Notes: a model not told the origin generated them from the sequence alone. A DNA stretch of 54,878 bases from Candidatus Levyibacteriota bacterium (GCA_029260905.1 JAJDCH010000008.1:1-54878), one strand, 5' to 3'. Shown: positions 4,036 through 43,016, counted from the first letter of the stretch. Made by a program: numbers and translations.

Positions 4036-5078
4036 AGATTTTATTTTTAACCAAAAGATTTTTGCCTGATATTGGTGGCGTGGAAAAGCATGTTTTTGAA
4101 ATAGCAAATATTCTTGCAAAAAAAAATCATCAAGTAACTGTTATTGCAGAAGAACCAGATAAAAAACCTTATTTTAAGTATAAAAAATTAAAAAATATTA
4201 ATGTTTTTCATATTCCCAAGTTCAAGGATGATAAATTAAAAAAATTTAAGATTTGGTTTTTTTTAATTAAAAAAAATAAAATTATCCAGGACACTGATAT
4301 AGTTCATTGTCATGATGTTTTTTTCTGGTATTTGCCATTTAGATTTATATATCCAACAAAGTCTGTTTATACAACTTTTCATGGCTATGAAACAAAATTC
4401 CCTATCAGTAAAAAAGCTATTTTTATTCGAAAGCTAAGTGAGAAGTTGTCATTTGGAAGTATTTGCGTTGGTGATTATATTTCTAAATATTATGGAGCAA
4501 AACCTAATTATATAATTTATGGTGGAGCAAAAAAAGCTCAAAATAAAAACTTGTTTGCCACAGGACTTAAAACGCAAGATTTTAATCTTGAGTTAAAAAT
4601 TTGTTTTATTGGTAGATTGGACATTGATACAGGTGTAAAAATATATCTTGAAGCCTTGAATTTATTGAAGAAAGAAAAAATAAATTATAGATTTAAAAGT
4701 TTTGGAGATGGGGTCTTAAAGAAAGATGTTAAAAAATACGGAAAAGCTAATGGGTTTGTGATGAATGTAGAAAAAGAAATTGAAAGAACAGATATTGTGT
4801 TTGCCTCATCTTATCTAGCTATTCTTGATGCGCTTATTCAGAAAAAAATAGTTATTGCTGTATATTCAAATGAGCTGAAAAAAGATTATTTGAAAATGTC
4901 ACCTTTTTCCAGATTTATTTATATATGCAAGAATGCAAATGAAGTTCTTGAAGTAATAAAATTAGTAAATACTAATTCATGGAAATCTAAATCAATGGTT
5001 GAAAATGGATACAAATGGGCAAGTAACCATGCCTGGGAAAATATTGTAAAAATTTATTATAAATTGTGGAAAATATGA
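4032..5078 (+). CDS. GT4 (GT-B fold) glycosyltransferase
   Basis: PDIGGVEKH, DIVHCHD, TTFHG, FIGRL and a C-terminal W..IV..Y pattern. Confidence 0.85.
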   Translation: MKILFLTKRFLPDIGGVEKHVFEIANILAKKNHQVTVIAEEPDKKPYFKYKKLKNINVFHIPKFKDDKLKKFKIWFFLIKKNKIIQDTDIVHCHDVFFWYLPFRFIYPTKSVYTTFHGYETKFPISKKAIFIRKLSEKLSFGSICVGDYISKYYGAKPNYIIYGGAKKAQNKNLFATGLKTQDFNLELKICFIGRLDIDTGVKIYLEALNLLKKEKINYRFKSFGDGVLKKDVKKYGKANGFVMNVEKEIERTDIVFASSYLAILDALIQKKIVIAVYSNELKKDYLKMSPFSRFIYICKNANEVLEVIKLVNTNSWKSKSMVENGYKWASNHAWENIVKIYYKLWKI

Positions 5079-6019
5079 AAATTACATTTATTGCAACTGT
5101 TTTCAATGAAGAAGAAAATATTGATAATTTTTTAAAGTCTTTATCATTGCAAACAAAAAAGCCGGATCAAATTGTAATAGTTGATGGGGGAAGTATAGAT
5201 ACTACAGTATTTAAGATTATGAATTATGAATCAAGAATTGATACAAATTTTAATTTTTATATAAAAAAAGGCAATAGATCAGTTGGAAGAAATGAAGCGA
5301 TAAGAAATGCAACTGGAGACATAATTGTTTGTTCAGATTCAGGAAATATTTTGGATAAGAATTGGATTAAAAATATATACAAACCTTTTCTAAATAAAAA
5401 CATTGATGTTGTTGCTGGATATTATAAAGCCAGAACTGAAAATGTATTTCAAGAATGCCTGATTCCATATGTTTTTGTAATGCCAGATAAGATAAATTCT
5501 CGAGATTTTCTTCCTGCAACAAGATCTGTTGCATTTAAAAAATCTGTTTGGAAAAAAGCTGGTGGATTCAACGAACGTTTGTCGCATAATGAAGATTATG
5601 TCTTTGCAAATAAACTCAAAAAGATAAACGCAAAGATATTTTTTGAAAAAAACGCTTTTGTTTATTGGATACCAAGAAAAAACTTAAAAGAAGCCTATTT
5701 TATGTTCTATAGATTTGCACAGGGAGATATTGAATCAGGAATATTAAGACCAAAAGTGGTTTTTATTTTTGTTCGTTATTTAGTTGCTTTTTGGATGTTG
5801 ATTTGTTTCCTGATATTTAGATCATCCTTTATACTTAGTGTCTTATGCCTTATAATAGTAATGTATATATTTTGGTCAATAAAAAAGAATTATAAATATG
5901 TTAAAAAATGGGAGGCTCTATTTATCTTACCTGGACTACAGATCGTATCTGATTTTGCAGTGATGATAGGAAGTCTGATTGGTTCAATCAAATTATGGGA
6001 TATGCAAAAGAAGCAATAA
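5075..6019 (+). CDS. GT2 glycosyltransferase with C-terminal TM helices
   Basis: TVFNEE, VDGGS, GRNEAI, SDSG, NEDY. ATG 5075 overlaps the upstream TGA (ATGA). Confidence 0.9.
   Translation: MKITFIATVFNEEENIDNFLKSLSLQTKKPDQIVIVDGGSIDTTVFKIMNYESRIDTNFNFYIKKGNRSVGRNEAIRNATGDIIVCSDSGNILDKNWIKNIYKPFLNKNIDVVAGYYKARTENVFQECLIPYVFVMPDKINSRDFLPATRSVAFKKSVWKKAGGFNERLSHNEDYVFANKLKKINAKIFFEKNAFVYWIPRKNLKEAYFMFYRFAQGDIESGILRPKVVFIFVRYLVAFWMLICFLIFRSSFILSVLCLIIVMYIFWSIKKNYKYVKKWEALFILPGLQIVSDFAVMIGSLIGSIKLWDMQKKQ
5213..5240 (+). repeat. Degenerate 7-nt tandem repeat inside a GT2 gene
   Basis: AAGATTA TGAATTA TGAATCA AGAATTG, encoding KIMNYESRI. Confidence 0.65.
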
Positions 6020-7212
6020 AAGGGGTTTCATGGCTTGGTTTTTTGCGTGTTGCAATACGTGGTGTTTCGTATGTAAGAATAGCAATTTTGGCACGTCTTC
6101 TGACCCCGGTACAATTTGGTATTTCAGACATAGCTCTTCTTGTTCTTGGAATAACTGAGATATTTACAGAAACAGGAATAAATCTTTTTTTGATTCAACA
6201 AAAAGAAAGAATAGATAAATACATCAGTACTGCTTGGATAATATCAATTGTAAGGGGACTTTTTATATCAATATTAATTCTTCTGAGTGCTGGGATTGTA
6301 GCAAATTTTTTCAGCAATCCTGATGTTGTAAATTTCCTGACGGTAACTGCTCTGATTCCAATTATAAGAGGAACTATAAATCCTGCGATTGTAAAATTAG
6401 TAAAGGAGTTGAATTTTAGAAAAGAATTTTATTATCGAACGGTAATATTTGTAATCGAAGTCGTGTCAAGTGTAATTATCGCATTTGAAACTAATTCATC
6501 GATTGCAATAGTTGCTGGTGTTGCAATTGGTGCAGTATTCGAAAGTTTATTTTCTTTCTTTATTGTTAGACCGAGACCGTCTTTATTTTTTAATATGAGT
6601 ATTTTTAAAGACATATTTAAAAATGGAAAATGGTTTACTGTAACTGGTATTTTTAGCTATCTTTATCATAATGGTGACAATATAGTAGTTGGCAAAATGT
6701 TGGGTGCTGCACCACTTGGTCTTTATCAGAGAGCCTATAGCATATCGACTCTTCCCATAACTGAGGTTTCGGATGTAATACAAAAAGTAACTTATGCAGT
6801 ATTTGTAAAAATATCAGGAGATTTGAAAAGACTAAGAAATGCTTATCTAAAATCAATTCTTTCTGTTATTATGATTGTTTTTCCAATTGGGGCAGTATTT
6901 TATTTTTTTCCTGAGTTTACAATAAAGATTATACTGGGTGATAAGTGGTTGGGTGCTGTAGATGTTTTAAAAGTTTTAGCTATTTTTGGTGTTCTTCGTG
7001 CAATTTCTCTCTCGTCAATTGCACCATTTTATGCGCTTAAAAGACAAGATCTTGTCACTAGAATAACCTTTGTTGCCTTTTTGGGTTTAGCTGTTACCAT
7101 TATACCTTTTGTGCAAAAATGGGGAATTCTTGGTGCGGGTTATTCAGCATTGGTTGGAGTATTACTTTCTATTCCAATTACTATTTATTATTTATTTAAG
7201 ATACTCAGATGA
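5995..7212 (+). CDS. wzx: Wzx/WzxC-type polysaccharide flippase
   Basis: ILARLLTPVQFG, DNIVVGKMLGAAPLGLYQRAY and many TM segments, typical of PST-family flippases. Confidence 0.85.
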   Translation: MGYAKEAIKGVSWLGFLRVAIRGVSYVRIAILARLLTPVQFGISDIALLVLGITEIFTETGINLFLIQQKERIDKYISTAWIISIVRGLFISILILLSAGIVANFFSNPDVVNFLTVTALIPIIRGTINPAIVKLVKELNFRKEFYYRTVIFVIEVVSSVIIAFETNSSIAIVAGVAIGAVFESLFSFFIVRPRPSLFFNMSIFKDIFKNGKWFTVTGIFSYLYHNGDNIVVGKMLGAAPLGLYQRAYSISTLPITEVSDVIQKVTYAVFVKISGDLKRLRNAYLKSILSVIMIVFPIGAVFYFFPEFTIKIILGDKWLGAVDVLKVLAIFGVLRAISLSSIAPFYALKRQDLVTRITFVAFLGLAVTIIPFVQKWGILGAGYSALVGVLLSIPITIYYLFKILR

Positions 7213-9842: not shown

Positions 9843-9853
9843 AATTTTATATG

Positions 9854-9926
9854 AGCCGATGACGGGAATCGAACCCACGACTTACTCTTTACGAAAGAGT
9901 TACTCTACCAACTGAGTTACATCGGC
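9854..9926 (-). tRNA. tRNA-Thr(CGT)
   Basis: Acceptor stem GCCGATG/CATCGGC, anticodon stem ACTCT/AGAGT with loop TT-CGT-AA, T loop TTCGATT. CCA not encoded. Confidence 0.93.
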
Positions 9927-9939
9927 AAATCATAATGTT

Positions 9940-9968: not shown

Positions 9969-9969
9969 C

Positions 9970-15094: not shown

Positions 15095-15185
15095 GACTTA
15101 AGACTCATCGCTTAAGATTTATGAGTTAAGAATTAGGCAAATTTAAGTATATAAATTCATATTTTTCCTAATTCCTAATTCATAG
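15095..15185. repeat. Two opposed 7-nt repeat arrays forming an imperfect inverted repeat (atpE-atpF spacer)
   Basis: GACTTAA GACTCAT CGCTTAA GATTTAT GAGTTAA GAATTAG ... TTCCTAA TTCCTAA TTCATAG. Arms 15120-15137 and 15167-15184 are complementary at 16 of 18 positions. Confidence 0.7.
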
Positions 15186-15225: not shown

Positions 15226-15477
<252 letters not shown>

Positions 15478-15490
15478 TTATAAGTCATAA

Positions 15491-16405
15491 TTAATGATTT
15501 TCCTCCTTTGCATGCGCATGGTGCGGAGTTGTTAATACTGCCATAAAAACAAGTGTCAATACTGAAAATACCAGTGCTTGAACGATGCTGACAATTGATT
15601 CTAGCAGAAGAAATGGCAATGGTGCAAGGAATGCGAAAATATTGGATATCGTATGAAGCGCAATTTCTCCAGCAAATATATTTCCAAAAAGTCTGAAAGA
15701 AAGAGAAATTATTTTTGTTACCTCTGCAACTAATTCTAAAAGCCCGACATATAAGTTTATCGGATTAAATGAGAAAAAGCGGCCAAGATAATCACCAAGT
15801 CCGGTTAGCTGAATGCTAAGCATATGTGTTGCAACAACTGAAATAAGAGCAAGAGCAAGAGTCACATTAATATCGCTTGTAGCGCCTCTTAAAAGTGGAG
15901 TTAGATGCGCTTTTTGCTCTATCTCTTCTGTGTGTCCTGATTCTTTTTCATGAGAATTTGTTGTTGTAGAAGCTTCCTGATTCATCTTCTTTGCTTCAGA
16001 ATGAGTTTCAGTTACTGTTTCTTTATTGTGAATAGGTTCTGATGCATGAGCTTCATTTACTATTCTTGAGTGTTCACTTCCTTCTTCGTAAAATCCAATT
16101 GTTCCAACGCCAGGGAAAAGACCGAGAAGATTTGAGAAAAGAATAAAAAGAAAAAAAGTCATTACGTAGGGGAATATGCTCATTGCTGCTTTTTTGGAGC
16201 TTGCTATTGACTCAGTGAGTGAGTACATGGCATCTACAATTGCTTCAGTGAATGATTGAAAGCCTTGAGGAATTTTTTTAAGATTTCGACCAGCAAAAAA
16301 AGCTGTAGCAATTAGAACCCCATCAACAATGAGTGTATGTAAAAATGTATTGGTTACCTGTAGGGGACCAATCTGGGTGATAATTTCAGGAGCAAACGCT
16401 GCCAT
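15491..16405 (-). CDS. atpB: ATP synthase a subunit with a long His/Glu-rich insertion
   Basis: SNLLGLFPG, ATSDIN, SLSFRLFGNIFAGE (essential Arg), VQALVF. Confidence 0.96.
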   Translation of the reverse strand: MAAFAPEIITQIGPLQVTNTFLHTLIVDGVLIATAFFAGRNLKKIPQGFQSFTEAIVDAMYSLTESIASSKKAAMSIFPYVMTFFLFILFSNLLGLFPGVGTIGFYEEGSEHSRIVNEAHASEPIHNKETVTETHSEAKKMNQEASTTTNSHEKESGHTEEIEQKAHLTPLLRGATSDINVTLALALISVVATHMLSIQLTGLGDYLGRFFSFNPINLYVGLLELVAEVTKIISLSFRLFGNIFAGEIALHTISNIFAFLAPLPFLLLESIVSIVQALVFSVLTLVFMAVLTTPHHAHAKEENH

Positions 16406-19676: not shown

Positions 19677-19687
19677 GGGTTTATTAT

Positions 19688-19722
19688 AAAGGGTTAAAGC
19701 TGAGGCGTAAAGGGTTAAGAAA
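19688..19722. repeat. Degenerate 7-nt tandem repeat in the gatB-dnaE spacer
   Basis: AAAGGGT TAAAGCT GAGGCGT AAAGGGT TAAGAAA, directly upstream of the dnaE -10 box. Confidence 0.5.
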
Positions 19723-19725: not shown

Positions 19726-21042
19726 TTATTTAATGTTTTTAATAATTGCCTCTTTTACAATATTTATATTTACTTTTTTGCCAATTTTTTTCATGGCTTG
19801 TCCCAGAAGAAACATCAATACATTTTCTTTTCCTGACTTATATTCATCAACAGCTTTTTTGTTTTCGTTTAGTGTTTCAATAATGATTTTATCAAGTTCT
19901 TTTTGGTCAATTTGTATTGTTTGTTTAGCGTTTAAGATTTGTTTGACAAGTGCTATGGGCAAAATCTTTTTAATATCTATTTTTTTATTAATTATTTCGT
20001 TTGCAATTTGTTTTGGTTTTATTTCATTTTTTCCCACTCTCACTGTTTCTTCAAAGTAGTTAGCCATTTTTCTGTCTCTTGTAAGTATCTCAGCATCATA
20101 GCGGGGGAGTCCAAATATTTTTTCAAATCTCTTAAGTTTTTGATCAGGTAGCTCAGGTATTGCTATTTTTAATTTTTCTATGTCTTTTTCTGTATAGATA
20201 ATAGGTGGAATATCTGGTTCAGGAAAATATCTATAATCCATTGCGTCCTCTTTGCTTCTTTGAGAGAAGGTTTTTTGTTTTGCTTCATCCCATCCTCTTG
20301 TTTCCTGAGCTGGTGTTTCTTTTTTGTCCAATATTTCAGTCTGTCTTTTTATTTCATAATTAACAGCTTTTTCTACAAATTTAAATGAATTAATATTTTT
20401 TATCTCCACTTTGTAGTCTGGTAACTTGTTGCTTATTGCTTGCTGCTTACTGCTTAATGATATATTTGGCTCAAGTCTCATATCGCCTTTTTCCATATCT
20501 GCATCAGCAACTTCCAGGTAACGAACAATTTGTCTTAGTTTTTGCAAATATTCTTTGACATCTGTAGCATTGTGAAAATCAGGCTCAGTCACTATCTCAA
20601 CTAGAGGCACTCCAGATCTATTGAAGTCAATCAGACTTGATTCCCCCTCATGAATCAGTTTTCCAGTGTCTTCTTCCATGTGGACTCTTCTTATCCTAAT
20701 TATTTTTCCATTGCTTAAAGTAATTGATCCATTTTGACCAAAAGGAAGATCATATTGACTTATTTGATATCCCTTTGATAGATCTGGGTAAAAGTAATTT
20801 TTTCGATCAAATTTTGAGAACAGATTTATTTTACAATTAAGACTGAGGGAAATTTTTATACACCAATCAATTGCTGTTTTGTTTGGAACAGGCAGAGCAC
20901 CAGGAAGCCCTAGGCAAACAGGACAAGTTATGGTGTTTGGTTCTTTGCCAAAATATTTTGCTTCGCATCCACAAAACATCTTTGAGTTAGTCTTTAGCTC
21001 AACATGAGTTTCAAGTCCGATTATTGGAGTGTATTTATTCAT
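19726..21042 (-). CDS. gatB: Asp/Glu-tRNA amidotransferase subunit B
   Basis: IGLETHVEL, RKNYFYPDL, HMEEDTG, DYRYFPEPD. Start at ATG 21042 overlaps the gatA stop. Confidence 0.98.
   Translation of the reverse strand: MNKYTPIIGLETHVELKTNSKMFCGCEAKYFGKEPNTITCPVCLGLPGALPVPNKTAIDWCIKISLSLNCKINLFSKFDRKNYFYPDLSKGYQISQYDLPFGQNGSITLSNGKIIRIRRVHMEEDTGKLIHEGESSLIDFNRSGVPLVEIVTEPDFHNATDVKEYLQKLRQIVRYLEVADADMEKGDMRLEPNISLSSKQQAISNKLPDYKVEIKNINSFKFVEKAVNYEIKRQTEILDKKETPAQETRGWDEAKQKTFSQRSKEDAMDYRYFPEPDIPPIIYTEKDIEKLKIAIPELPDQKLKRFEKIFGLPRYDAEILTRDRKMANYFEETVRVGKNEIKPKQIANEIINKKIDIKKILPIALVKQILNAKQTIQIDQKELDKIIIETLNENKKAVDEYKSGKENVLMFLLGQAMKKIGKKVNINIVKEAIIKNIK
20427..20454 (-). repeat. 7-nt tandem repeat inside gatB
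   Basis: Coding strand AGCAGTA AGCAGCA AGCAATA AGCAACA (SSKQQAISNK). Confidence 0.8.
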
Positions 21043-22738: not shown

Positions 22739-23542
22739 TTATAGCTTAATTCCAAGTCTTCTTGCAATCATTTGTCTTGCTTTTTGTTCAAGAGTATTAT
22801 CTAATTTTTTAAGTTCAATTTCTTTGCTATATTTTATGAAAAGAGCTTTTGCTATCAAAAAATCTGCTATTTCAGGATTTTTGGAAAGAAGTGGCCCGTG
22901 AAAGTATGTGCCAATTGCATTTTTGTAAACTACGCCTTCTGTTTTGTCTTCACCATTGTTTCCGTATCCTTTTAAAACTTTTGCAAATGGTACTGCTGTT
23001 GGTCCAAGACAAGTTCTCCCCCCGTGATTTTCAAAACCAACCATGTAGCTTTTGGTTCTTAGTTCCTGGTTCTTGGGATAAAGGTTTTGCCAATTAACAT
23101 CAGCAACGATATTTCCAATCAGTCTTTCTTTTTTTGGTCCTGGATGAATTGAGGTCATATCAAAAATACCAAGTCCTTCAATTCTTTTTCCAACGGATGG
23201 TTCATAATATTTTCCAAAAAGTTGCGGCGCGCCACAAACAAAAAGCGCGGGTACTTCTCTCTCAATAAGCTTTCTTATTTCAGTTTCATGTTTTTTTAAA
23301 TATTTAATTACTATTGATTGCTCTTTATCTTGTGCGCCACCTGCAAATAAAAGGTCAATAGATTTTAGATCTTGGGTCTTAGATTTTTGATCTATGTTGA
23401 TAATTTTTACATTAATTCCTCGCCACTGACATCTTTTTAAAAGTACCATAATGTTACCACTGTCCCCATAGGTACTCATTAATTCTGGATATAGCCAGCC
23501 AATTATTAGTTCTTGGTTCTTTGTTGATGGTTTTTTATTCAT
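22739..23542 (-). CDS. gatD: Lipid II isoglutaminyl synthase glutaminase subunit (CobQ-like GATase)
   Basis: YPELMSTYGDSGN, catalytic Cys in VCGAPQL, GFENHGG, HGPLLSKNP; coupled to murT. Confidence 0.9.
   Translation of the reverse strand: MNKKPSTKNQELIIGWLYPELMSTYGDSGNIMVLLKRCQWRGINVKIINIDQKSKTQDLKSIDLLFAGGAQDKEQSIVIKYLKKHETEIRKLIEREVPALFVCGAPQLFGKYYEPSVGKRIEGLGIFDMTSIHPGPKKERLIGNIVADVNWQNLYPKNQELRTKSYMVGFENHGGRTCLGPTAVPFAKVLKGYGNNGEDKTEGVVYKNAIGTYFHGPLLSKNPEIADFLIAKALFIKYSKEIELKKLDNTLEQKARQMIARRLGIKL
23046..23087 (-). repeat. 7-nt tandem repeat inside gatD (C-proximal)
   Basis: AAACCTT TATCCCA AGAACCA GGAACTA AGAACCA AAAGCTA (NLYPKNQELRTKSY). Confidence 0.7.
23358..23392 (-). repeat. 7-nt tandem repeat inside gatD (middle)
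   Basis: GATCAAA AATCTAA GACCCAA GATCTAA AATCTAT (DQKSKTQDLKSI). Confidence 0.75.
23505..23539 (-). repeat. 7-nt tandem repeat forming the gatD N-terminus
   Basis: AATAAAA AACCATC AACAAAG AACCAAG AACTAAT (NKKPSTKNQELI). Confidence 0.7.
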
Positions 23543-24846
23543 AAGATTTTTTTGCCAGTTAAGATCTTTCTTGCATCAAGCATAGCTGAATATGTTGGGA
23601 GAATGAAGAGTGTCTCTTTGTTGTTTAATGTCTGAACTGAATCATCAATTGCTTTTTTTAATTCATCATTGACTTTGACTTTCAATTCGTAATCTTTGAT
23701 TCCCAATTCATATTTTAACCTCAGCGCCATATCATAGACTCGATCACCAGATAGATAAATATTTTTGAAATTCTCAATACCTTTCAGGTCTACATCCCAA
23801 ATCCATGAGATATCACGACCATCAGGAATCCGATCATTTAAAATAATTAAAATTGTTACTGCCTTCATATCTTTTATGGTTTGAAAAGACTGGTTAAAGC
23901 TAGTTGGATTTTTGGAAAGAAAAACTTGAATCTTCTTTCCTTTGTAAAAAATTTCTTCCTGTCTGCCAAACGCAGGCTTGAAGGTTTTGAAAGACTCTTC
24001 TATTTTTTTATCAGTTAACCCATTTTGTTTTAGGGTAAGTACCGCTGCATGAGTGTTATATTTGTTATAAACGCCTGAGAGGGGATAAAAAGAAAAATTA
24101 TCAATGTCTGGTTTCGGTTTTTTAAGATTGCATTTTGGGCAAAGCCAGTCTCCAAGATGTGAAAAAATTATTCTTTTGTAATTTAATTTTTCACCACAAT
24201 TTGGGCAATATCCAGAATCAGATGCTTGATTTGTTGGATTTTTGTAGTTATCTATAGATAGATCATTACAACTAAAATATTTTATTTTGGCTTTTAGTTT
24301 TTGACCCAAATTTGCAATCAATGGATCATCAGCATTAAGAATAAGAGTTGTTGAACTTGTTAATCTTTGAAGTGAACTCTTCCAATTCTCAGCAATTGTA
24401 TTAATCTCGCCATATCTGTCTAGCTGATCACGGAAAAGATTTAAAAGCAAAAGATAGTCTGGGGTTATTTGAGCGAGAATTTGCGGGATGGTATTCTCAT
24501 CTACTTCAAAAATTGCAAAATCTTTTTTAATTTTTCCCGCTCCATCAGAATAGCTAATTAAAGTGGATGCGATACCATTGAGAAGATTTGCGCCTGATTT
24601 ATTTCTGATAATTGTTTTTCTATTTTGTTTAAGTGCATTTGAAATAAGAGATGAGGTAGTTGTTTTGCCATTTGTTCCTGCAACAAGAATTATTTTAATA
24701 TCTGATTTTGATAAAATTTGTTTAATAAATTGAGGGTTTATATTTAGCGCAATGTGTCCAGGCCAGGTTGATCCGTTGCCAAGATTAAAAAGACTTGCTG
24801 ATTTGGAAATAATTTTTCCAATGCCTGTTAATAAGCTATTTAACAT
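23539..24846 (-). CDS. murT: Lipid II isoglutaminyl synthase Mur-ligase subunit
   Basis: GTNGKTTT, EVDE, NLFRDQLDRYGE, CxxC...CxxC zinc finger, DGRDISWIWD (DUF1727), PTYSAM. Confidence 0.93.
   Translation of the reverse strand: MLNSLLTGIGKIISKSASLFNLGNGSTWPGHIALNINPQFIKQILSKSDIKIILVAGTNGKTTTSSLISNALKQNRKTIIRNKSGANLLNGIASTLISYSDGAGKIKKDFAIFEVDENTIPQILAQITPDYLLLLNLFRDQLDRYGEINTIAENWKSSLQRLTSSTTLILNADDPLIANLGQKLKAKIKYFSCNDLSIDNYKNPTNQASDSGYCPNCGEKLNYKRIIFSHLGDWLCPKCNLKKPKPDIDNFSFYPLSGVYNKYNTHAAVLTLKQNGLTDKKIEESFKTFKPAFGRQEEIFYKGKKIQVFLSKNPTSFNQSFQTIKDMKAVTILIILNDRIPDGRDISWIWDVDLKGIENFKNIYLSGDRVYDMALRLKYELGIKDYELKVKVNDELKKAIDDSVQTLNNKETLFILPTYSAMLDARKILTGKKIL
23674..23715 (-). repeat. Degenerate 7-nt tandem repeat inside murT
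   Basis: AAATATG AATTGGG AATCAAA GATTACG AATTGAA AGTCAAA (KYELGIKDYELKVK). Confidence 0.55.
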
Positions 24847-28166: not shown

Positions 28167-28240
28167 GGGGTTGTAGCTCAGTTGGTTAGAGCGTCTCCCT
28201 GTCACGGAGAAGGTCGCGGGTTCGAGTCCCGTCAATCCCG
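28167..28240 (+). tRNA. tRNA-Asp(GTC)
   Basis: Acceptor GGGGTTG/CAATCCC, anticodon stem TCTCC/GGAGA with loop CT-GTC-AC, T loop TTCGAGT, G73. CCA not encoded. Confidence 0.95.
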
Positions 28241-28337
28241 CATAAAGTTTTTATAGCTCCCAATTTTAGAAGTTTTTTTATTATAGTATTGTAGTCTTTC
28301 AGTCTGTAAGAAAAGATTTATAGGACAACTTGACCCC

Positions 28338-28366
28338 TTGCATTTTTAAAAAAAACATTGTATTCT
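28338..28366 (+). promoter_or_regulatory. Candidate promoter for the LysM gene
   Basis: TTGCAT-17 nt-TATTCT; the leader carries SD AAGGAGGT. Confidence 0.5.
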
Positions 28367-28420
28367 TCTTCTTAATTAGTAATTCTGTCCACACCATCTC
28401 TGCCTAGAAAGGAGGTATGC

Positions 28421-29053
28421 ATGTCTACAAAACATTTAAATAAAATAAAATCAAATTTTCCCGGATTTTTCAGAATTGGTGAGTCATACACAAGTCTAGT
28501 TCTTGGAATTATTGTTGTCATTGTTGTTACTATTCTTATAATCGCTTTCGTTAGACAGAGAAACGGAGATGAAGTAACAGATGAAAGCGCTACAACCAAA
28601 AGCGGAGATCTTTACACAGTTGGAGAGGGTGAAACGCTTTGGGATATTTCAGAGAAAGAATTTGGAAGTGGATACAACTGGGTTGATATCGCATCTGAAA
28701 ACAATCTAGGAGATCCAAATGCTATTGAAGCAGGTACTGAATTAAAGATCCCTGATGTTGAGCCAAAAACACCAACAACTGAAGAGGCAATGTCAATGGA
28801 GAAAGCTGAAGAATCAGAAGTCGAAGATGCAATGAAAAAAGAAGAGCCAAAAGAGGAAGCTGTTATGGAGAAGAAAGAAGAAACAGCTGAGATCAAAGGC
28901 GATTCATATGTTGTTAAAGAAGGCGACTATCTCTGGAAAATAGCAGTTGAAGCATATGGTGATGGATTCAAATGGGTCGAGATCGCAAAGGTAAATAATA
29001 TTTCAAATCCAGACCTAATCTATCCAGAAACCAAGCTCAAGCTTCCAAGATAA
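28421..29053 (+). CDS. Membrane-anchored double-LysM protein
   Basis: One TM, YTVGEGETLWDIS...LKIP and YVVKEGDYLWKIA...LKLP, separated by an acidic linker. Confidence 0.92.
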   Translation: MSTKHLNKIKSNFPGFFRIGESYTSLVLGIIVVIVVTILIIAFVRQRNGDEVTDESATTKSGDLYTVGEGETLWDISEKEFGSGYNWVDIASENNLGDPNAIEAGTELKIPDVEPKTPTTEEAMSMEKAEESEVEDAMKKEEPKEEAVMEKKEETAEIKGDSYVVKEGDYLWKIAVEAYGDGFKWVEIAKVNNISNPDLIYPETKLKLPR

Positions 29054-29191
29054 AACCTGCCCATTCGTCCTATTAATTATTGGATAAAGAAAATAAGTGG
29101 AGAAGCATAGGGTAATTTGTATTATCTTCTTGTTCTAAAATCTTACAATTTTTAATTTAAAAATTATGAATTAATTATTTAAGATTTGTTG

Positions 29192-29262
29192 AGCGGGGTA
29201 CGAGAATCGAACTCGCTTCTCCACCTTGGGAAGGTGGCATACTACCGGTATACTAACCCCGC
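29192..29262 (-). tRNA. tRNA-Gly(CCC)
   Basis: Acceptor GCGGGGT/ACCCCGC, anticodon stem CCACC/GGTGG with loop TT-CCC-AA, T loop TTCGATT, U73. CCA not encoded. Confidence 0.93.
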
Positions 29263-29349: not shown

Positions 29350-31020
29350 ATGCCCCTTACAAAATCTAAAAGAACTAAATATATATTTGTTTCAGGCGGT
29401 GTCATATCTGGAATTGGCAAAGGCACAACCGCTGCCAGTATTGCTTATCTTCTTAAAACTGCAGGCTATAAAGTCGCTCCAATAAAGTTTGAAAATTATC
29501 TCAATATAGATGCAGGTACGATAAATCCTATTGAACATGGTGACCCTTTTCTTTGTGAAGATGGAACCGAGGGTGATATGGATATAGGAACATATGAAAA
29601 ATTTCTTGATGAAGATATGGGTCATGATAATTTCATCACAATGGGCAGGATTTATCAGACGGTTATTGATAAAGAGCGTAGATTTGAATATGGAGGAGAA
29701 GATGTTGAAGCAATACCACACATTACAGATGAAATTCAAAAAAGAATAAAAACGCTTGCTGATAAAACAGATGCAGACATAATTTTGATTGAGCTGGGTG
29801 GAACAGCTGGTGAGTACCAAAATGTATTTTATTATGAAGCATCTCGTATCATGACTCTAAGAAATCCAGGAGACGTGATCCATGTTCATGTCAGCTATGT
29901 TCCCACCCCTGCGCATCTTGGCGAACCAAAAACCAAGCCGACTCAACTTTCAGTACGAACACTTAACTCACTTGGAATTCAGCCTGATTTTATAATCGCA
30001 AGATCCAGAAAGTATCTTGATAAAAGGCGAAGAGACAGATTTGCGCTTTTCTGCAATATGCACCCAGAAGATATTATCTCAAATCCTGATCTAGAGTCAG
30101 TCTATGAAATCCCTCTTGTTCTTCAAAAACAGGAAATGGATAAAAGGATTTTTGAAAAGTTGGGATTAACACCCAAAAAAGCTGATCTAAGTAAATGGGA
30201 GGCTCTTGTGGGTAAGATAAAAGCGAAAAAGAGCAAAAAGATTGAGATAGCCATTATTGGAAAGTATTTTGGAACTGGTGATTATCAGCTTAAAGATTCA
30301 TATGCAGCGCTTTTTGATGCAATTAATCATGCAAGTTGGGAAATAGGAGTGGAAGTAACAACCAAATGGGTTGATGCTGAAAAAGTAGAGAAAGAAGGGG
30401 TTAAGATAATTGGCGCGCCAGACGGGCTTATCGTGCCAATTGGCTGGGGATCAAGAGGTTCAGAAGGTATGATAGCAGCTGCTACATATGCAAGAGAAAA
30501 CAATATTCCATATCTGGGACTTTGTTATGGAATGCAGCTTGCAGTTGTTGCTTTTGCCAGATCTGCTGCAGGAATTGAAGATGCATCAAGTGCTGAGAAT
30601 CATCCAGATAGCAAGCACCCAGTAATATATATAATCCCATCTCAAAAAGAGCTAATGAAAAGACGTGCATATGGGGGAACTATGAGGCTTGGAAGTTGGG
30701 AAGCAATTGTTGAGAAGGGAAGCAAAGCTCACGCGCTTTATGAAAAATATGGTGGATTTATAGACAAAGAAAAGGGACTTACTAGTGAGCGTCACAGACA
30801 TAGGTATGAATTTAACAATAAATATGCCAAAGATCTTGAGAAGGCAGGCCTGAATATAACTGCCAAATCAGTTGCAGAAGGGCTAGTTGAGATAATTGAG
30901 GTTCCAGATCACCCCTTTTACATGGGAACACAGGGTCATCCAGAATACAAAAGTAGGCCACTTAAGCCCCACCCAATATTTTTGGGATTTTTGGAAGCAA
31001 TGGCAGGAGAGAGAAAATAG
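29350..31020 (+). CDS. pyrG: CTP synthase
   Basis: GGVISGIGKG, KTKPTQ, LGLCYGMQ, ERHRHRYE, HPE. Promoter TTGATA-17-TAACAT 5 nt before ATG. Confidence 0.98.
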   Translation: MPLTKSKRTKYIFVSGGVISGIGKGTTAASIAYLLKTAGYKVAPIKFENYLNIDAGTINPIEHGDPFLCEDGTEGDMDIGTYEKFLDEDMGHDNFITMGRIYQTVIDKERRFEYGGEDVEAIPHITDEIQKRIKTLADKTDADIILIELGGTAGEYQNVFYYEASRIMTLRNPGDVIHVHVSYVPTPAHLGEPKTKPTQLSVRTLNSLGIQPDFIIARSRKYLDKRRRDRFALFCNMHPEDIISNPDLESVYEIPLVLQKQEMDKRIFEKLGLTPKKADLSKWEALVGKIKAKKSKKIEIAIIGKYFGTGDYQLKDSYAALFDAINHASWEIGVEVTTKWVDAEKVEKEGVKIIGAPDGLIVPIGWGSRGSEGMIAAATYARENNIPYLGLCYGMQLAVVAFARSAAGIEDASSAENHPDSKHPVIYIIPSQKELMKRRAYGGTMRLGSWEAIVEKGSKAHALYEKYGGFIDKEKGLTSERHRHRYEFNNKYAKDLEKAGLNITAKSVAEGLVEIIEVPDHPFYMGTQGHPEYKSRPLKPHPIFLGFLEAMAGERK

Positions 31021-31059
31021 TATTTAATATTAAGTATTAGATTTTTAATCCTTGAGTTC
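31018..31059. repeat. Degenerate 7-nt repeat in the pyrG-rplS spacer
   Basis: TAGTATT TAATATT AAGTATT AGATTTT TAATCCT TGAGTTC. Confidence 0.5.
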
Positions 31060-31419: not shown

Positions 31420-32214
31420 TTAAGAAAGCGTTTTTACGAATTTATAGATAAAATATGCGCTTAGGAGCGAAATAGCAAAAGATATAATTGTTCCCCAAAG
31501 TAAACCAGTTGAAATATAAAAAAATCGTACTGTCAAAGAATAAACAAGCACATTTATTAATCCGCTAAGCATCAGTGATTTCATTACGCCCAGAGAAAAC
31601 TTTTCTCCTTGGAGCTTATATGTTATTGCCATTGTTGCAAAAAAAACTGCGGGAAATGAGGCAAATGCACCTCCTAGTAAAGGTCCACCAAACTCAGAAA
31701 ATAGTACAGATATCGCAATCGTAGAGCCACCAATTAATCCTCTAATTAGTATATCTTGATAAGAAAACTTATATTTTTTTCCAGAAACTGATGGTATTCT
31801 TAATAAGTATTCAAGAATTAAGTAAGACATGGGTAATATCACTAAAAAAGAAGCTATTGAGATATATAAATTGTTAAAATTAAAAAAGATCAAAATTGCT
31901 GAAGACACAAACCAAAACAATATTGATAAAGAGTATGCGATATAAAAATGATAGCGTAGAAAAAAACTATAAATAACAACCAATAATGCATTAATGCTTA
32001 ATATAATAGGAATTATAGAAACGCTTTCAGAAGCGTGAATTGTTCCTTGTGTCCAGCCAATAAAAAAGAGAGCAATAACAGTAGTAGAAGGTATTCCGGC
32101 AACCACTCCTCCAAGTTTGGACCCCAAGTTTTCTGCAAGTATTGTTGTCAATGTAATCCAGACAGAGCCTACAAGAAAAGATAAAAATAATTTTAATAAA
32201 AAAATATTGTCCAT
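31420..32214 (-). CDS. Polytopic membrane protein with internal duplication (DUF3147-like)
   Basis: About 8 TM segments; halves carry matching motifs AENLGSKLGGVVAGIPS and SEFGGPLLGGAFASFPA. Confidence 0.65.
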   Translation of the reverse strand: MDNIFLLKLFLSFLVGSVWITLTTILAENLGSKLGGVVAGIPSTTVIALFFIGWTQGTIHASESVSIIPIILSINALLVVIYSFFLRYHFYIAYSLSILFWFVSSAILIFFNFNNLYISIASFLVILPMSYLILEYLLRIPSVSGKKYKFSYQDILIRGLIGGSTIAISVLFSEFGGPLLGGAFASFPAVFFATMAITYKLQGEKFSLGVMKSLMLSGLINVLVYSLTVRFFYISTGLLWGTIISFAISLLSAYFIYKFVKTLS

Positions 32215-37267: not shown

Positions 37268-37313
37268 ATAATATTGATTTTGCAGGCAAAATTGTGTAGA
37301 ATGTTTTTCTTAT

Positions 37314-37619
37314 ATGAGTTTCGAAGCAATAAGATCGAGTAATAGACGAGCTAGGGAATTAGCAGAGCTTCACGTTGCAAATTTGCTAAAAACATCAAAA
37401 AATATAGATGGATTGCCACCATGTCTACGTAAAAGCAAAAGGTTAGAAGGGCTTCGTCCACAAGCAAAAGTTGTTATTGATGACCTTACGAAATTACCAC
37501 ACTTAGAAAGTGTAAGATTGATGAGGGGGGGCAAAAGAAGACTTGGTTCCAGTTTTTCAACTAGGGCAGGCATAAGGGTTGCATATGAGTTGACAAGAGC
37601 AAGGATAAAGAGTTTGTAA
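37314..37619 (+). CDS. Basic hypothetical protein
   Basis: Fills the rsmI-gpmA gap; preceded by TTGATT-17-TAGAAT (37274-37302); no recognised motif. Confidence 0.55.
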   Translation: MSFEAIRSSNRRARELAELHVANLLKTSKNIDGLPPCLRKSKRLEGLRPQAKVVIDDLTKLPHLESVRLMRGGKRRLGSSFSTRAGIRVAYELTRARIKSL

Positions 37620-37650
37620 TTATTTTTAGTTTTATGAAATGAGTAATTTC

Positions 37651-38277
37651 TTAAACTTTATTCTCGTTCTTGTTTCTTATTTCTTTTGAAGCTATATTAC
37701 CATCCTTTTCTATCTCATAGACATAAATTTCACCAACTGCGATTTCAAGATGGGGGATGTCCTCATCTGATATATTTTCAAGATATTTGATCAATGCTCT
37801 TAGACTATTTCCATGAGCCGTGATAATAATATTTTTGCCATCTTTCAAAAGTGGCATGATCTCAGATTCAAAATAAGGAATAGCTCTTTGATAAACATCT
37901 TTTAAAGATTCACCGTTTGGCAATTGATAATCCCAGCTACGTCTTATTTTCTGAAACATCTCCTCTCCCACTTCTTTTTTTACTTCCCATTTATTTTTTC
38001 CAGTATAATCACCGTAATCTCGTTCATTTAAAGCTTTATTTTCAGTTGTTGGTACGTTTTTCTCAGTGCTTCCTTTTTGAATTTCATCCCATGTTTCCTT
38101 AGCTCTTTTTAGGGTCGATGTGAACGCGAGATCCATATGGATATCTTTTAGTTTTTCTCCAGCTTCAAAAGCAACTTCTCGACCTTTATCATCAAGTGAA
38201 ACATCAGTCCAGCCGGTCCAGAGACCTTTGGCATTCCAAACAGATTCACCATGTCTAACAAGTATAAGTTTTGCCAT
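37651..38277 (-). CDS. gpmA: 2,3-bisphosphoglycerate-dependent phosphoglycerate mutase
   Basis: LVRHGES, TGWTD, LNERDYG, RRSWD, AHGNSLRAL. Confidence 0.97.
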   Translation of the reverse strand: MAKLILVRHGESVWNAKGLWTGWTDVSLDDKGREVAFEAGEKLKDIHMDLAFTSTLKRAKETWDEIQKGSTEKNVPTTENKALNERDYGDYTGKNKWEVKKEVGEEMFQKIRRSWDYQLPNGESLKDVYQRAIPYFESEIMPLLKDGKNIIITAHGNSLRALIKYLENISDEDIPHLEIAVGEIYVYEIEKDGNIASKEIRNKNENKV

Positions 38278-38280
38278 AGA

Positions 38281-38322
38281 TTATTAGTATTAAGTATAAA
38301 GTATTATGTATTAAGTATAAAG
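38281..38322. repeat. 7-nt tandem repeat with 21-nt super-period upstream of gpmA
   Basis: TTATTAG TATTAAG TATAAAG TATTATG TATTAAG TATAAAG. Confidence 0.85.
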
Positions 38323-38331
38323 GGTATGGTT

Positions 38332-39372: not shown

Positions 39373-39418
39373 CTAGATTTATTGTTGCTTATTGAGAAAG
39401 AAATTTCAAGCACTTGTA

Positions 39419-39448
39419 TTGACAATCAAGGAAAAATTAGTCTATAGT
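39419..39448 (+). promoter_or_regulatory. Promoter of the Hpt-receiver-pilus operon
   Basis: TTGACA-18 nt-TATAGT. Confidence 0.6.
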
Positions 39449-39470
39449 CAAATAAGTTAACAATAGTTAT

Positions 39471-39866
39471 ATGCCAGTTTCAGACGACGATAAAAGTAAG
39501 TTCAAAGATTTGTATCTTCAAACAGCAAAAGCTTATATCGATGATATTCAGAGAAATTTATTAATTTTAAGGTCTGACTTTTCGAATAAAGAATCAATAG
39601 GTGTGGTACATATGGCAGCCCATTCTTTGACAAGTCAAAGTATATTGATGGGCTTTGGTCATGTTGCTGCATACTCAAGACTTATTGAGATGATTTTTAG
39701 ACAAAAAATAAATGACAATAACAGAATTCTTGATTTTGAATTGGTTCAAGAGATAGACAAAGGGCTTGTTGAGCTGTATAAATCTCTTGATGCGATAAAA
39801 GACAATGGGGTTGAAGTTGATATGTCTCCTTTTATAAAGTTGTTAGAATCAAGAGTTCATAATTAG
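39471..39866 (+). CDS. Stand-alone Hpt (CheA P1-like) phosphotransfer protein
   Basis: Helical 131-aa protein with AAHSLTSQS..MGF matching the Hpt H-box AHSLKG.S..MG. Confidence 0.8.
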   Translation: MPVSDDDKSKFKDLYLQTAKAYIDDIQRNLLILRSDFSNKESIGVVHMAAHSLTSQSILMGFGHVAAYSRLIEMIFRQKINDNNRILDFELVQEIDKGLVELYKSLDAIKDNGVEVDMSPFIKLLESRVHN

Positions 39867-39868
39867 TT

Positions 39869-40240
39869 ATGTATGTACTATTAATAGAAGACGACAAATT
39901 TTTTCAAGAGTTTTATTCTTTTAAATTAAAAGAAAAAGGAGTAGAAGTTGACATAGCATCAGATGGTGAGGAAGGCTTGTTAAAGATTGCGCAAAGAATT
40001 CCAGATGTCATTCTTCTTGATCTTATCATGCCTAAAAAGGATGGGTTTGAGGTGCTACAGGAGCTTGTGAATAGAAATCTTATCGCTCAGATACCAGTTC
40101 TTGTTTTTTCAACTCTTGGTCAAAAGTCTGATGTCGAAAAAGCAATAGGACTTGGAGCTAAGGGATATGTAAATAAAAGCTTTTTTGACTTTGACAAACT
40201 CCTCACATCCATCATACAATTAGGTCAGAAACAAAACTAA
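39869..40240 (+). CDS. Single-domain response regulator (CheY-like receiver)
   Basis: IEDD acidic pocket, phospho-Asp in LLDLIMP, FST and conserved Lys (VNKS); no output domain. Confidence 0.93.
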   Translation: MYVLLIEDDKFFQEFYSFKLKEKGVEVDIASDGEEGLLKIAQRIPDVILLDLIMPKKDGFEVLQELVNRNLIAQIPVLVFSTLGQKSDVEKAIGLGAKGYVNKSFFDFDKLLTSIIQLGQKQN

Positions 40241-40249
40241 TCTGCCCAT

Positions 40250-41932
40250 ATGCTCATAACAGATGAAAAGCTCAAAGAGCTATTGCTTAATGTCAAGGTG
40301 TTGGATGAAAAAAGTCTTTTAGATGTAGAGACTTATTCTAAAAACACGGATACTTCGCTTTATGAATCGTTGATAGAAAAAGATATTATCACTGATGAAA
40401 ATTTGGGAATTCTTATTGCAGATTCTCTTAAAATTCCATTTATCGTTCTCTCCAAGATTTCAATTCCTGATAATGTTTTTAAAATAATTCCTGAAAGAAT
40501 TGCTCGAAAGTATAAGGCAATACCATTTGAGCGCGATAAGAATGGAGTTAAAGTGGCAATGGCTGATGTTAGCAATAAGATGATTCAGGAAATGATTGCT
40601 AAAAAAACAGGGCAAAAGGTCTATGCATATCTTTCAACAGAGCGTGACATCTATAGCAAGTTGTATATTTTTAAAAAAGACCTTCAGAAATCTTTTGACA
40701 GTCTAGTTTCTGAGCAGTTAAAAAACGCCGGCAAAGGAGCATCAGATGCGCCCATTTCAAAGATAGTTAGTCTTATTATTCAGTATGGTTATCAGGATCA
40801 GGCATCCGATATTCATATTGAACCAGAAGAGAAAGGAACACTTGTTCGTTTCCGTGTTGATGGTATTCTTCATGATGTTTTACATCTCCCCAAAAATCTT
40901 CATGAGCAGATCTCAACTCGTATAAAAGTCTTATCAAATTTAAGAACCGATGAGCATATGTCACCTCAGGATGGAAAATTAAGGGTTGAGTTGGAGGAGG
41001 AAAATCTTGACATCAGGGTGTCTATCTTGCCGATTGTGTATGGTGAGAAACTGGTTATGAGGCTTCTTGCATCGCATTTCAGGCAGTTTTCACTGGTTGA
41101 TCTTGGTATGCGAGAGGAGGATCTGGAAAAAGTAAATAAAGGTTTTGCCAAATCTTTTGGGATGGTTCTTTCTACTGGTCCGACTGGTTCTGGAAAAACA
41201 ACATCAATTTATTCAATTCTGAAGATAATAAATACTCGCGAAAAAAACATCACCACCATTGAAGATCCGGTTGAGTATAGGATAAAAGGCGTTAATCAAA
41301 TTCAAACAAATGTCAAGGCTGATCTTACTTTTGCACAGGGTCTAAGATCTATTCTTAGACAAGACCCAAACGTTATTTTTGTTGGTGAAATAAGAGATAG
41401 TGAGACTGCGGGAATTGCTGTAAACGCAGCACTCACCGGTCATTTAGTCTTGTCAACTCTTCATACAAATGATGCTGCTGGCGCGCTTCCGAGACTTACA
41501 GACATGAATGTTGAGCCGTTTCTGGTTGCCTCAACAGTAAATGTTATTGTTGCCCAGCGTCTTGTCAGAAAAATTTGTGAGATGTGTAAATCATCAATTG
41601 AGGTAACAGAAAATGATCTTGATAAGAATTTGCCACCAGAAGTTGTAAAAAAATATTTTGGTGAGAAAAAGGATATGCGGATTTATGTAGGAAAAGGATG
41701 TGAGGTTTGTCACGAGACAGGATATTCTGGAAGAATTGGTGTTTTTGAGGTTCTGTCTGTCAGCCCTGCCATTAAGGCGTTAATTAGCGCAAAAAAAGAT
41801 TCCAATGTCATCCTTGAGCAGGCAATAGAAGAAGGGATGACAACAATGCTGGATGATGGAATTATTAAAGTTAAGAAGGGCCTAACAAGTATTGAGGAAG
41901 TGTTAAGGGTTACAAAAGTAGAATCGCTTTGA
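40250..41932 (+). CDS. pilB: Type IV pilus assembly ATPase (PilB/GspE)
   Basis: ASDIHIEP, GPTGSGKTT, EDPVEY, LRQDP, GEIRD, STLHTN, tetra-Cys motif. Confidence 0.96.
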   Translation: MLITDEKLKELLLNVKVLDEKSLLDVETYSKNTDTSLYESLIEKDIITDENLGILIADSLKIPFIVLSKISIPDNVFKIIPERIARKYKAIPFERDKNGVKVAMADVSNKMIQEMIAKKTGQKVYAYLSTERDIYSKLYIFKKDLQKSFDSLVSEQLKNAGKGASDAPISKIVSLIIQYGYQDQASDIHIEPEEKGTLVRFRVDGILHDVLHLPKNLHEQISTRIKVLSNLRTDEHMSPQDGKLRVELEEENLDIRVSILPIVYGEKLVMRLLASHFRQFSLVDLGMREEDLEKVNKGFAKSFGMVLSTGPTGSGKTTSIYSILKIINTREKNITTIEDPVEYRIKGVNQIQTNVKADLTFAQGLRSILRQDPNVIFVGEIRDSETAGIAVNAALTGHLVLSTLHTNDAAGALPRLTDMNVEPFLVASTVNVIVAQRLVRKICEMCKSSIEVTENDLDKNLPPEVVKKYFGEKKDMRIYVGKGCEVCHETGYSGRIGVFEVLSVSPAIKALISAKKDSNVILEQAIEEGMTTMLDDGIIKVKKGLTSIEEVLRVTKVESL

Positions 41933-41934
41933 TT

Positions 41935-42984
41935 ATGAGTACAAAAAGAATTAGTATTTCAAATAAAGAAAAAATAGGATTGATCAGTAATCTGCATACA
42001 ATGCTTTCAGCTGGGATTCCGATTCTTGAAACAGTTGATTCATTACTCGAGGATGTAAAAGGAAACATGAGGAAGCTTCTTCTTGTTCTAAGAGAGGATT
42101 TGATACAGGGAAAAAAGGTTTCATTTGCTTTTGCAAAATTTCCAAAGATCTTTGATAAGGTTACAGTTAATATCATTAAGGCCTCAGAAGAGGCTGGCAA
42201 TCTTGATACTACATTAAATGATATAAAAGAAAATATTAAAAAAGATATTGAATTTAATGACAAAATTAAAAGTGCTCTAATCTATCCTGTTTTTATTATG
42301 TTTGTTTTTGTAGCAGTGCTTTTGATGATTTTGGTTGTGGTTGTTCCGAAAATTTCCAATGTTTTTTTAAGACTAAATGTAGAGCTTCCTCTCCCAACGC
42401 GTATTATGATTAGTATGTCTGATGCACTAATTAACAACACTATTCCAGTTGTTCTTGGAATAGGGTTTGCTATTTTCATAATTATGTTTCTGTTTAAGAA
42501 GAATAAAAGAGCATTTATATCAATCCTTGTTTCTCTTCCAGCTATTTCAACGCTTGCGCAAAAGGTAGATTTGACGCGTTTTTCAAGAGGGCTTTATCTT
42601 CTTTTAAGTGCGGGAATTCCTATTACTTCGGCGCTTGAGCTTGCGGAGGAGATTGTCAGTAAAAGAGAAATGCAAAGAGCAATAAAGCAGACAAAAGAAA
42701 TGGTCTTTTCTGGAAAAAAGCTGTCTGATGGGTTAAAGCTCAACAAGGCAATTATTCCATCAATTATGATAAAGATAGTTGAGGCTGGCGAGAAAACAGG
42801 ATCTTTAGATAGATCTATGCAAGACGTTTCTGAATATCTTGACTATGAGGTGTCAAGTTCTCTAAAGACTCTTACGGCACTTATTGAGCCGCTTCTTTTA
42901 GTGATTGTGGGTGTGATGGTTGGCGGGATGATGATGGCTATCATCAGTCCTATCTATAGCATTGTTGGACAGATTGGAGGGTAA
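41935..42984 (+). CDS. pilC: Type IV pilus platform protein (PilC/GspF)
   Basis: Two GspF repeats (LSAGIPI; EEAGNLD / GEKTGSLD), ALIYP, LIEP. Confidence 0.95.
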   Translation: MSTKRISISNKEKIGLISNLHTMLSAGIPILETVDSLLEDVKGNMRKLLLVLREDLIQGKKVSFAFAKFPKIFDKVTVNIIKASEEAGNLDTTLNDIKENIKKDIEFNDKIKSALIYPVFIMFVFVAVLLMILVVVVPKISNVFLRLNVELPLPTRIMISMSDALINNTIPVVLGIGFAIFIIMFLFKKNKRAFISILVSLPAISTLAQKVDLTRFSRGLYLLLSAGIPITSALELAEEIVSKREMQRAIKQTKEMVFSGKKLSDGLKLNKAIIPSIMIKIVEAGEKTGSLDRSMQDVSEYLDYEVSSSLKTLTALIEPLLLVIVGVMVGGMMMAIISPIYSIVGQIGG

Positions 42985-42988
42985 AATT

Positions 42989-43016
42989 AGCTTATGGCTT
43001 ATGGTAAATGGCGTAT
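42989..43016 (+). repeat. 7-nt repeat spanning the start of a minor pilin
   Basis: AGCTTAT GGCTTAT GGTAAAT GGCGTAT; supplies the ATG and MAYGKWRI leader. Confidence 0.7.

Follow-up and report, generated by a model that had tools for sequence, protein, structure and literature searches.

Why should genes and gene junctions carry short tandem arrays that share a period of 7 nt but not a repeated sequence? The question is raised by a contig of a Candidatus Levyibacteriota bacterium (JAJDCH010000008.1 of assembly GCA_029260905.1; contig C15 of the genome, here called the window, 54,878 nucleotides), in which an initial annotation had listed 13 such arrays. The genome (G000) comprises 953,759 bases in 17 contigs, with ~35% GC, and is 94.9% complete. 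We find that the period-7 family is real and genome-wide, and that the same permissive positions are repeatedly rewritten with different heptamer words, often at unchanged length. The family is a variant of a known but unexplained heptamer-array phenomenon. We tentatively propose, at a little below even confidence, that each array is a putative recognition site of four to five words, ~31 bases in all, for a pentamer of the four-helix-bundle IVP family (PF05635/TIGR02436).

The firm result for period 7 is the genome-wide one. Among segments scoring at least 12, 78 were found at lag 7, 56 at lag 14 and 25 at lag 21, and none of the remaining lags between 4 and 22 exceeded 14 (one at lag 5, six at lag 8). 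When the lag-7 scan that the initial annotation had proposed was run at a score of at least 11, it gave 99 arrays, compared with 1–3 in three codon shuffles and 13–15 in three synonymous shuffles that preserve the proteins. The signal is mostly lost in the latter; as the initial annotation had argued, the arrays are not simple codon repeats. A lag-symmetric detector found 104 arrays genome-wide, against none after codon shuffling and 10 after protein-preserving shuffling. Furthermore, G001, a comparison genome of the same genus with 572 reciprocal best hits to G000, contained 56 lag-7 segments and at most 13 at any lag that is not a multiple of 7. In the window taken alone, the simple segment scan gives a modest excess, with five at lag 7 and no more than three at non-multiples of 7. 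A lag-symmetric score of at least 28/42 was reached there at 14 places, versus 1–2 in codon shuffles and four in synonymous shuffles. Wherever coordinates were listed, the sequences described are present, and ten of the 13 arrays reach this score; one more, at 19688-19722 (25/42), is a clear member of a word family described below, whereas the evidence for those in GT4 and murT is weak. G000 also shows a mild excess at lag 8 (11 against 0–4 in shuffles).

The length of the arrays is narrowly peaked, with a mode of 31 nt and 86 of 135 strong arrays measuring 29–35 nt. By location, 68 of 104 strong arrays are coding and lie deep in genes, 24 are intergenic and 12 are at gene edges. Coding and intergenic arrays have median lengths of 32 nt (n = 68) and 31 nt (n = 24), respectively (p 0.98), which means that the reading frame does not set the size. 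The idea that the arrays are explained by three units, being 21 nt, keeping the frame is therefore not supported. Units three apart are also no more alike than neighbours (identity 0.74 against 0.81 within an array and 0.44 between arrays, in a set picked by word grammar), and we rejected 21-nt steps as a general rule because only four of 36 coding sites differ by +7 residues. Perfect arrays extend to 77–104 nt only between genes, as in two rare expansions, G000 C11:41802-41905 (104 bases) and G001 C1:450873-450949 (77 bases); long arrays of this kind lie at contig ends in G025 and G116, and may break assemblies.

The strong arrays of G000 comprise 39 distinct consensus words, none of which dominates. 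The claim of one period with different words thus holds, but the words are not unrelated. They fall into families and share a grammar, an A/T-rich unit with one C per seven on one strand, which scores a mean of 4.32 against 3.55 ± 0.06 in column-permuted controls (65 arrays). Units behave like independent draws from the family word. Variant columns of 323 arrays followed the patterns AABB, ABAB and ABBA in 30, 49 and 38 cases (p 0.10 against equal shares), and with no AABB excess a neighbour-copy signature was rejected. Middle singletons exceed end singletons in the same set, which may stem from window picking. Long-range inverted partners were also rejected for coding arrays, where they are mostly absent; within 3 kb, only 9 of 99 arrays had an inverted partner that beat all 30 controls. 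Promoter adjacency is not a general feature either, being seen for merely six of 36 non-coding arrays, several of them trivial. One 936-residue gene (L006; G000 C7:10154-12964), with no reciprocal hit shown in the G001 comparison, holds six arrays with six different words.

Among orthologues, in 30 GatB frames there were 16 lag-7 segments, six at lag 9 and at most one at lags 5, 6, 8, 10, 11 and 13. The segments cluster at a handful of positions, and in four orthologues they lie in a helix whose anchor-to-anchor length is unchanged. The array of the window (20425-20459; lag-7 match 20/24, p 7e-7) is in frame in a hypervariable loop (SSKQQAISNK), where relatives have no insert, other heptamers, 9-mers or palindromic inserts; between two relatives a GatB loop differs by 21 nt. 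GatD, a protein of 267 residues, holds three separate in-frame arrays in the window, for which the initial annotation had given no coordinates, each with a match of 17/24. They occupy a variable loop (23048-23076; five relatives with other words), a segment overwritten at a net length change of zero (23359-23391; other words at the same ungapped columns in three relatives) and the N-terminus (23503-23536; four relatives with other words). All three are recurrent hotspots among 30 GatD frames, which gave 14 lag-7 segments and at most one at other lags. A further recurrent hotspot was found in the GT2 glycosyltransferase gene (5066-6019, + strand), where the in-frame array at 5213-5243 (17/24) has counterparts of at least 16/24, with several different words, so that 8 of 24 aligned genes, the window gene counted, carry one. 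The alignments of GatB, GatD and GT2 support the view that arrays are tolerated in loops and termini, and add helices to these; ungapped matches of arrays to conserved residues in distant orthologues were not seen.

The same picture was obtained genome-wide against G001. Of 43 sites compared with the lag-symmetric detector, 22 had no partner array, 15 had one with a different word and six had the same word, whereas random sites yielded a partner array in 1.7% of 688 trials. Amino-acid identity was 0.39 at array sites and 0.72 for whole genes. For 36 coding arrays the net length change was zero in 14 and +7 residues in four, and otherwise scattered, some terminal alignments being unreliable. 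A higher codon identity in shared arrays (40/48 against 64%) was discarded as circular, the sites having been picked for their shared word. In this group, such patches resemble the outcome of convergence or positive selection and can lead alignments and trees astray.

Other kinds of insert share these positions. Palindrome-like, in-frame inserts of ~15–30 residues occur in the heptamer-array loops of GatB (L044, L048, L025) and GatD (L092, L099, L106, L086), and in L047 one sits within an array. They resemble the Rickettsia palindromic elements, in-frame selfish DNA in protein loops that consists of longer palindromes and adds residues. In L028, L035 and L045 the GatB hotspot is occupied by a 9-base word, which recurs in the arms of one IVP subfamily (L067, L078 and G000 C13 near 17985).

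What could be responsible for these arrays? As the initial annotation had stated, the window itself offers no candidate; an IVP or other responsible gene was not found there, only arrays. Four TIGR02436 genes scoring above the cut-off are present in G000, all on contigs C13 and C16. The resident protein matches PF05635 with 123 bits (cut-off 33.8) and the five-chain structure entry 2GSC with an E value of 1.7e-22. Two of the resident IVP genes are intact, lie in junctions between protein genes and are bracketed by inverted arrays, forming arm-gene-arm cassettes. Two genes look truncated (C13:17964-18227 and C16:51859-52110), and the one on C13 stops abruptly beside its downstream arm. Among 30 IVP loci from relatives a lag-7 array was found upstream in 16 and downstream in 19, with lags 5–6 in 0–1 and lag 8 in seven upstream and four downstream; arms of 8-base units were noted in the cassettes L061, L064 and L212. 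Locus L070 (G005:C2 near 68140) has a weak TIGR02436 match without arms, followed by sequence like the template repeat of a diversity-generating retroelement (DGR), and is probably a true Avd of such an element. The differing words of the arrays had been taken to argue against one mobile element; this overlooks that identical words form the inverted arms of IVP cassettes elsewhere in the genome.

The best-defined word family is that of the C13 cassette (G000 C13:12362-12781), the arms of which define the pattern (AAG[CG]GTN)4AAG. Allowing up to five mismatches, this family has 11 members in G000, none in four shuffles and two in G001. Two of them are the arms themselves, four form two inverted pairs without a gene, and five stand alone, among these 19689-19719 in the window and two within genes. 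None of the 11 has a sixth unit in the flanking bases listed, and seven keep the AAG triplet at both ends. Word order and spacer bases vary among the members, and their words are richer in G/C than the A/T-rich background. Intact, decayed and gene-less inverted forms are all present in G000, and the junction that houses the C13 cassette has no cassette but a different gene-less array in G001. Arm words are common to IVPs of more than 60% identity, with hardly any sharing below. Partner arms are no closer to each other than to non-partners (21–24 against a mean of 21.9 identities of 31), and no strand bias of arm pairing was found, the sense duplex being more stable than the antisense one in just 13 of 30 cassettes. 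The word of the GatB array in the window resembles the arms of the cassette on C16. With an intact C13 protein, encoded at G000 C13:12402-12755, and an 11-member family with sharp 31-base limits, the link between protein and word is directly testable.

As to gene families that co-occur with the arrays, a check the initial annotation had suggested, IVP copy number tracks array density. The density pattern is the word grammar of the A/T-rich G000, where it gives 32 matches against 0–4 in shuffles; its counts favour A/T-rich words and take in overlapping matches and cassette arms. Across 31 related genomes density and copy number correlate with a rho of 0.71, and across 120 genomes of the phylum, in which kin are not independent, with a rho of 0.59. 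For family means (n = 69) rho was 0.70, and of 17 within-family contrasts 14 went up, two were tied and one went down. Median densities per Mb were 0.9, 0.2, 7.5 and 24.5 for genomes with 0, 1, 2–3 and at least four IVP copies.

Our proposal would account for these observations as follows. The IVP protein is predicted, by homology to 2GSC and Avd, to be a homopentamer. Each subunit may read a single word of single-stranded RNA or DNA, so that arrays would be four to five units long and every protein would have a word of its own. Such a homopentamer would explain why arrays have this size and keep to one word, why units and arms vary independently, and why arrays go with the number of IVP genes. 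Binding would favour sequences that approach the word, via protection, recombination or re-registering; this is the least supported step, and a drive-like bias as the source of new sites is our choice among mechanisms. Through the replacement of short patches, and now and then a step of 21 bases, sites would accumulate across the genome, and selection on the protein would remove patches except where they bring no stop codon and lie in a loop, a terminus or an amphipathic helix. If cassettes turn over faster than arrays decay, words without a resident gene would arise, and a new word could overwrite an old site. One repeat per subunit of a ring protein is known from TRAP, the sites of which are 11-mers of period 5 in a few regulated leaders, and a short motif driven into genes is known from DNA uptake sequences, which have one non-periodic word. 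The proposal would bear on two unexplained matters, the heptamer-repeat preference of many bacteria and the role of the common four-helix-bundle 'IVS' proteins; if true, a small accessory protein would bring about rapid, patch-by-patch sequence change in core proteins and supply new promoter elements. In its boldest form, IVP pentamers would be selfish sequence-specific nucleic-acid rings that drive five-word, 31-base sites without transposase or reverse transcriptase, rewrite ten-codon patches of essential genes, create promoter elements and cause the heptamer-repeat bias of prokaryotes. That extension we consider doubtful.

Several observations weigh against the recognition-site reading. The genomes G011, G016, G116, G133, G124 and G043 are rich in arrays with no detected TIGR02436 gene, and G011 and G016 had no PF05635 match either; a profile of 33 IVPs also found no match in partial samples of G116 (53 kb) and G016 (160 kb). 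Conversely, G050, G058 and G068 have at least four IVP genes yet few pattern matches. The correlation with copy number is not corrected for GC. Covariation between protein and word is weak (Mantel rho 0.09, p 0.03) and could reflect co-inheritance. In G000, resident cassette words account for 13 of 76 dispersed arrays, compared with 10.8 expected from foreign cassettes (p 0.38), and in G001 only two of 40 match resident words, compared with 3.7 expected. We suppose that such orphan words are relics of lost cassettes, which is the weakest patch in the proposal, laid over the negative word matching of G000. G080 does use its own cassette words in 28 of 40 dispersed arrays (3.2 expected), in a test whose loci were selected in part around those cassettes and whose null came from a distant lineage. 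Its arrays are mostly 25–37 nt long, some cassette arms have a period of 8 or 9, and the non-uniformity of end phase is not significant when all families are pooled (p 0.15 and 0.53), so that 'exactly five' rests on one family.

In an alternative, templated scheme, an IVP-associated polymerase or recombination would copy the cassette word four to five times and paste the 31-base product over a site, as DGRs do. The replacement of ~10-codon blocks at net-zero length, the frequency of different words at the same site in G001 (15 of 43, against 1.7% at random), G/C-richer words in an A/T-rich background and the homology of IVP to Avd (PMC10053308) would all fit, and so would a clean indel of ~34 nt at 19688. 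G002 carries a related array at this position, however, so that the change may have been a gain or a loss. The 95%-complete genome yielded no reverse transcriptase (PF00078), and the 11 members of the C13 family are not block copies of one donor, because their word order and spacer bases differ. We judge templated writing to be unlikely. Intrinsic polymerase slippage of 7 bases, a hypothesis attributed to Mrazek et al. 2007 as cited in PMC4692102, would instead expand chance seeds under a filter of frame and protein tolerance, with IVP genes as passengers of repeat-prone genomes. It gains from the existence of perfect arrays, intergenic ones occasionally reaching 77–104 nt, from length differences of exactly seven residues and the 21-nt difference in a GatB loop, and from the persistence of arrays without a detected IVP. 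It does not predict a 31-nt peak outside genes, net-zero overwriting in the ungapped helices of four GatB orthologues, the missing AABB excess, one word family at unrelated loci, or many-fold density differences that track IVP number within one family, and we regard it as slightly less likely than templated writing.

Could the arrays instead be what is left of mobile arm-gene-arm cassettes after excision or decay, as hairpins without a gene or as single arms, in some cases within genes? The co-occurrence of intact, decayed and gene-less inverted forms in G000 and the different gene-less array at the C13-cassette junction of G001 are what this would leave behind, and cassette remnants may explain part of the intergenic set. 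As a general explanation it is improbable: an inverted partner within 3 kb is lacking for most arrays, a housekeeping gene would have to have hosted a cassette for each of the three GatD arrays and each net-zero site in a conserved helix, the two arms of a pair are not copies of one another, and no transposase or integrase belongs to the cassette. Least probable of all is that seven-residue amphipathic or low-complexity segments, combined with A/T-rich codon use, give rise to the coding arrays as a by-product. Three units do encode seven residues, and 13–15 of the 99 arrays survive synonymous shuffling, but the same control contradicts such a reading, because most of the signal disappears with the protein kept. 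Lag 7 moreover exceeds lag 21, identical words occur in intergenic arrays, and array sites are less conserved than the genes around them.

Similar arrays have been described before. In Geobacter metallireducens, heptanucleotide units in tandem groups of four, named Gmet_H4, occupy 49 places, some in genes and some outside them, and 'class 1-4' sites have four octamer or five heptamer units in pairs on opposite strands; their function is unexplained, and they were proposed to be regulator binding sites (PMC2700814). Each Geobacter class has one G/C-rich word, whereas G000 has dozens of A/T-rich ones, and the available text of that study names no binding protein and describes neither overwriting in orthologues nor word switching. 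The GGGAATC repeats of Xanthomonas, mostly of four units, and the GGGGA(C/T)T repeats of Nostoc also have a period of 7, often form inverted pairs and vary between close species (PMC4692102). G000 resembles the Gmet_H4 and Xanthomonas type in its period-7 excess, ~four units, location within and between genes and some inverted pairs, but differs in having no dominant word. The Xanthomonas and Nostoc repeats are mainly intergenic and are treated in that source as G-quadruplex formers, whereas the arrays of G000 are G-poor and mostly deep in genes. The initial annotation had pointed to the short tandemly repeated repetitive (STRR) sequences of filamentous cyanobacteria; the G-rich words of Nostoc are absent from the consensus words of G000, the host of which is not cyanobacterial by gene content.

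The IVP proteins themselves belong with the intervening-sequence proteins of 23S rRNA (PF05635, TIGR02436, 2GSC), also in lying between inverted arms; in contrast to these, the resident cassettes sit in protein-gene junctions rather than rRNA, and their arms are periodic. Avd is a positively charged pentamer (PMC6182149), all five subunits of which contact a 31-nt RNA element via flipped-out bases (10.1101/2023.10.23.563531). The Avd site described there is a stem-loop, whereas the sites in G000 are tandem word arrays. Unlike in DGRs, neither a reverse transcriptase nor a template/variable repeat pair was found in G000. GxxExxY or PDDEXK_3 partner genes were not found in G000 or in five of the array-rich genomes that lack a detected TIGR02436 gene. 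In the literature covered, which is incomplete, no paper linked heptamer arrays to IVP genes or to word-for-word overwriting of codons.

The remaining arrays of the window vary in strength. Between atpE and atpF, 15095-15185 is a gene-less inverted pair predicted to form a hairpin (minimum free energy –23.9 kcal/mol, z –3.9; none of 200 shuffles equally stable), and G001 has unrelated sequence at this position. Between atpB and atpE, 15473-15500 (16/24; 29/42) overlaps the atpB stop codon. The solo C13-family member at 19689-19719, ahead of dnaE and three mismatches from its family, is missing in G001 as a block of ~34 nt. It contains the –35 hexamer of a consensus promoter, TTTACG-17-TATAAT, on the – strand at 19683-19711, ahead of dnaE. 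A second C13-family member, G000 C4:33471-33501, likewise has TTTACG 17 bases before TATAAT, and is kept in G001; because this copy is conserved, co-option of C13-family words as promoters is suggested. An array follows the pyrG stop codon at 31018-31059 (16/24; 29/42), with no significant folding (z –1.7). Ahead of the phosphoglycerate mutase gene, 38281-38322 (20/24, p 7e-7) stands alone between genes and belongs to the word family most common there, with no inverted partner within 3 kb and no fold (z –0.5). The array at 42988-43016 (16/24; 28/42) overlaps a pilin-like gene (42994-43467, + strand) at its start and leader; in G001 this leader is a different A/T-rich sequence.

The stretches in GT4 and murT are indistinguishable from chance on their own. 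The former, at 4563-4597, is a weak period-7 stretch within the GT4 glycosyltransferase (4032-5078, + strand), in a loop that varies; it has a match of 10/24 (p 0.09 per window; score 21/42), and none of 13 orthologues has a strong array (at least 16/24) at this site. The latter, at 23674-23715 in a MurT loop (12/24, p 0.02; score 24/42), is a decayed or weak array; the loop is five residues longer than in many array-free orthologues, and is a hotspot in relatives, where five of 29 orthologues reach at least 16/24. An additional candidate is a patch of family words at 31795-31825 in a DUF3147 gene (31420-32214, – strand), which passes the vocabulary threshold with a lag-7 match of merely 12/24 and has no orthologue among the collected loci. 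The vocabulary score, used solely for this patch, overlooked the gatD, pilin and 19688 sites, the words of which are rare in the library.

The window further encodes glycosyltransferases, the ATP synthase operon, dnaE, gatCAB, murT-gatD, pyrG, uvrB and type IV pilus genes. For arrays between 14500 and 34000 no indel was listed, the comparison comprising only low-depth contigs of one study, and the host genes are in frame and intact. Genes for tRNA-Thr, tRNA-Asp and tRNA-Gly lie at 9853-9926, 28167-28241 and 29191-29262; a depth spike at 28171-28821 consists of tRNA-like matches from contigs of other organisms. Four short open frames without Pfam matches are found at 1538-2817 and 37314-37619, and the phosphoglycerate mutase gene holds one more short period-7 stretch at its 3' end (37667-37685), which the initial annotation had not listed.

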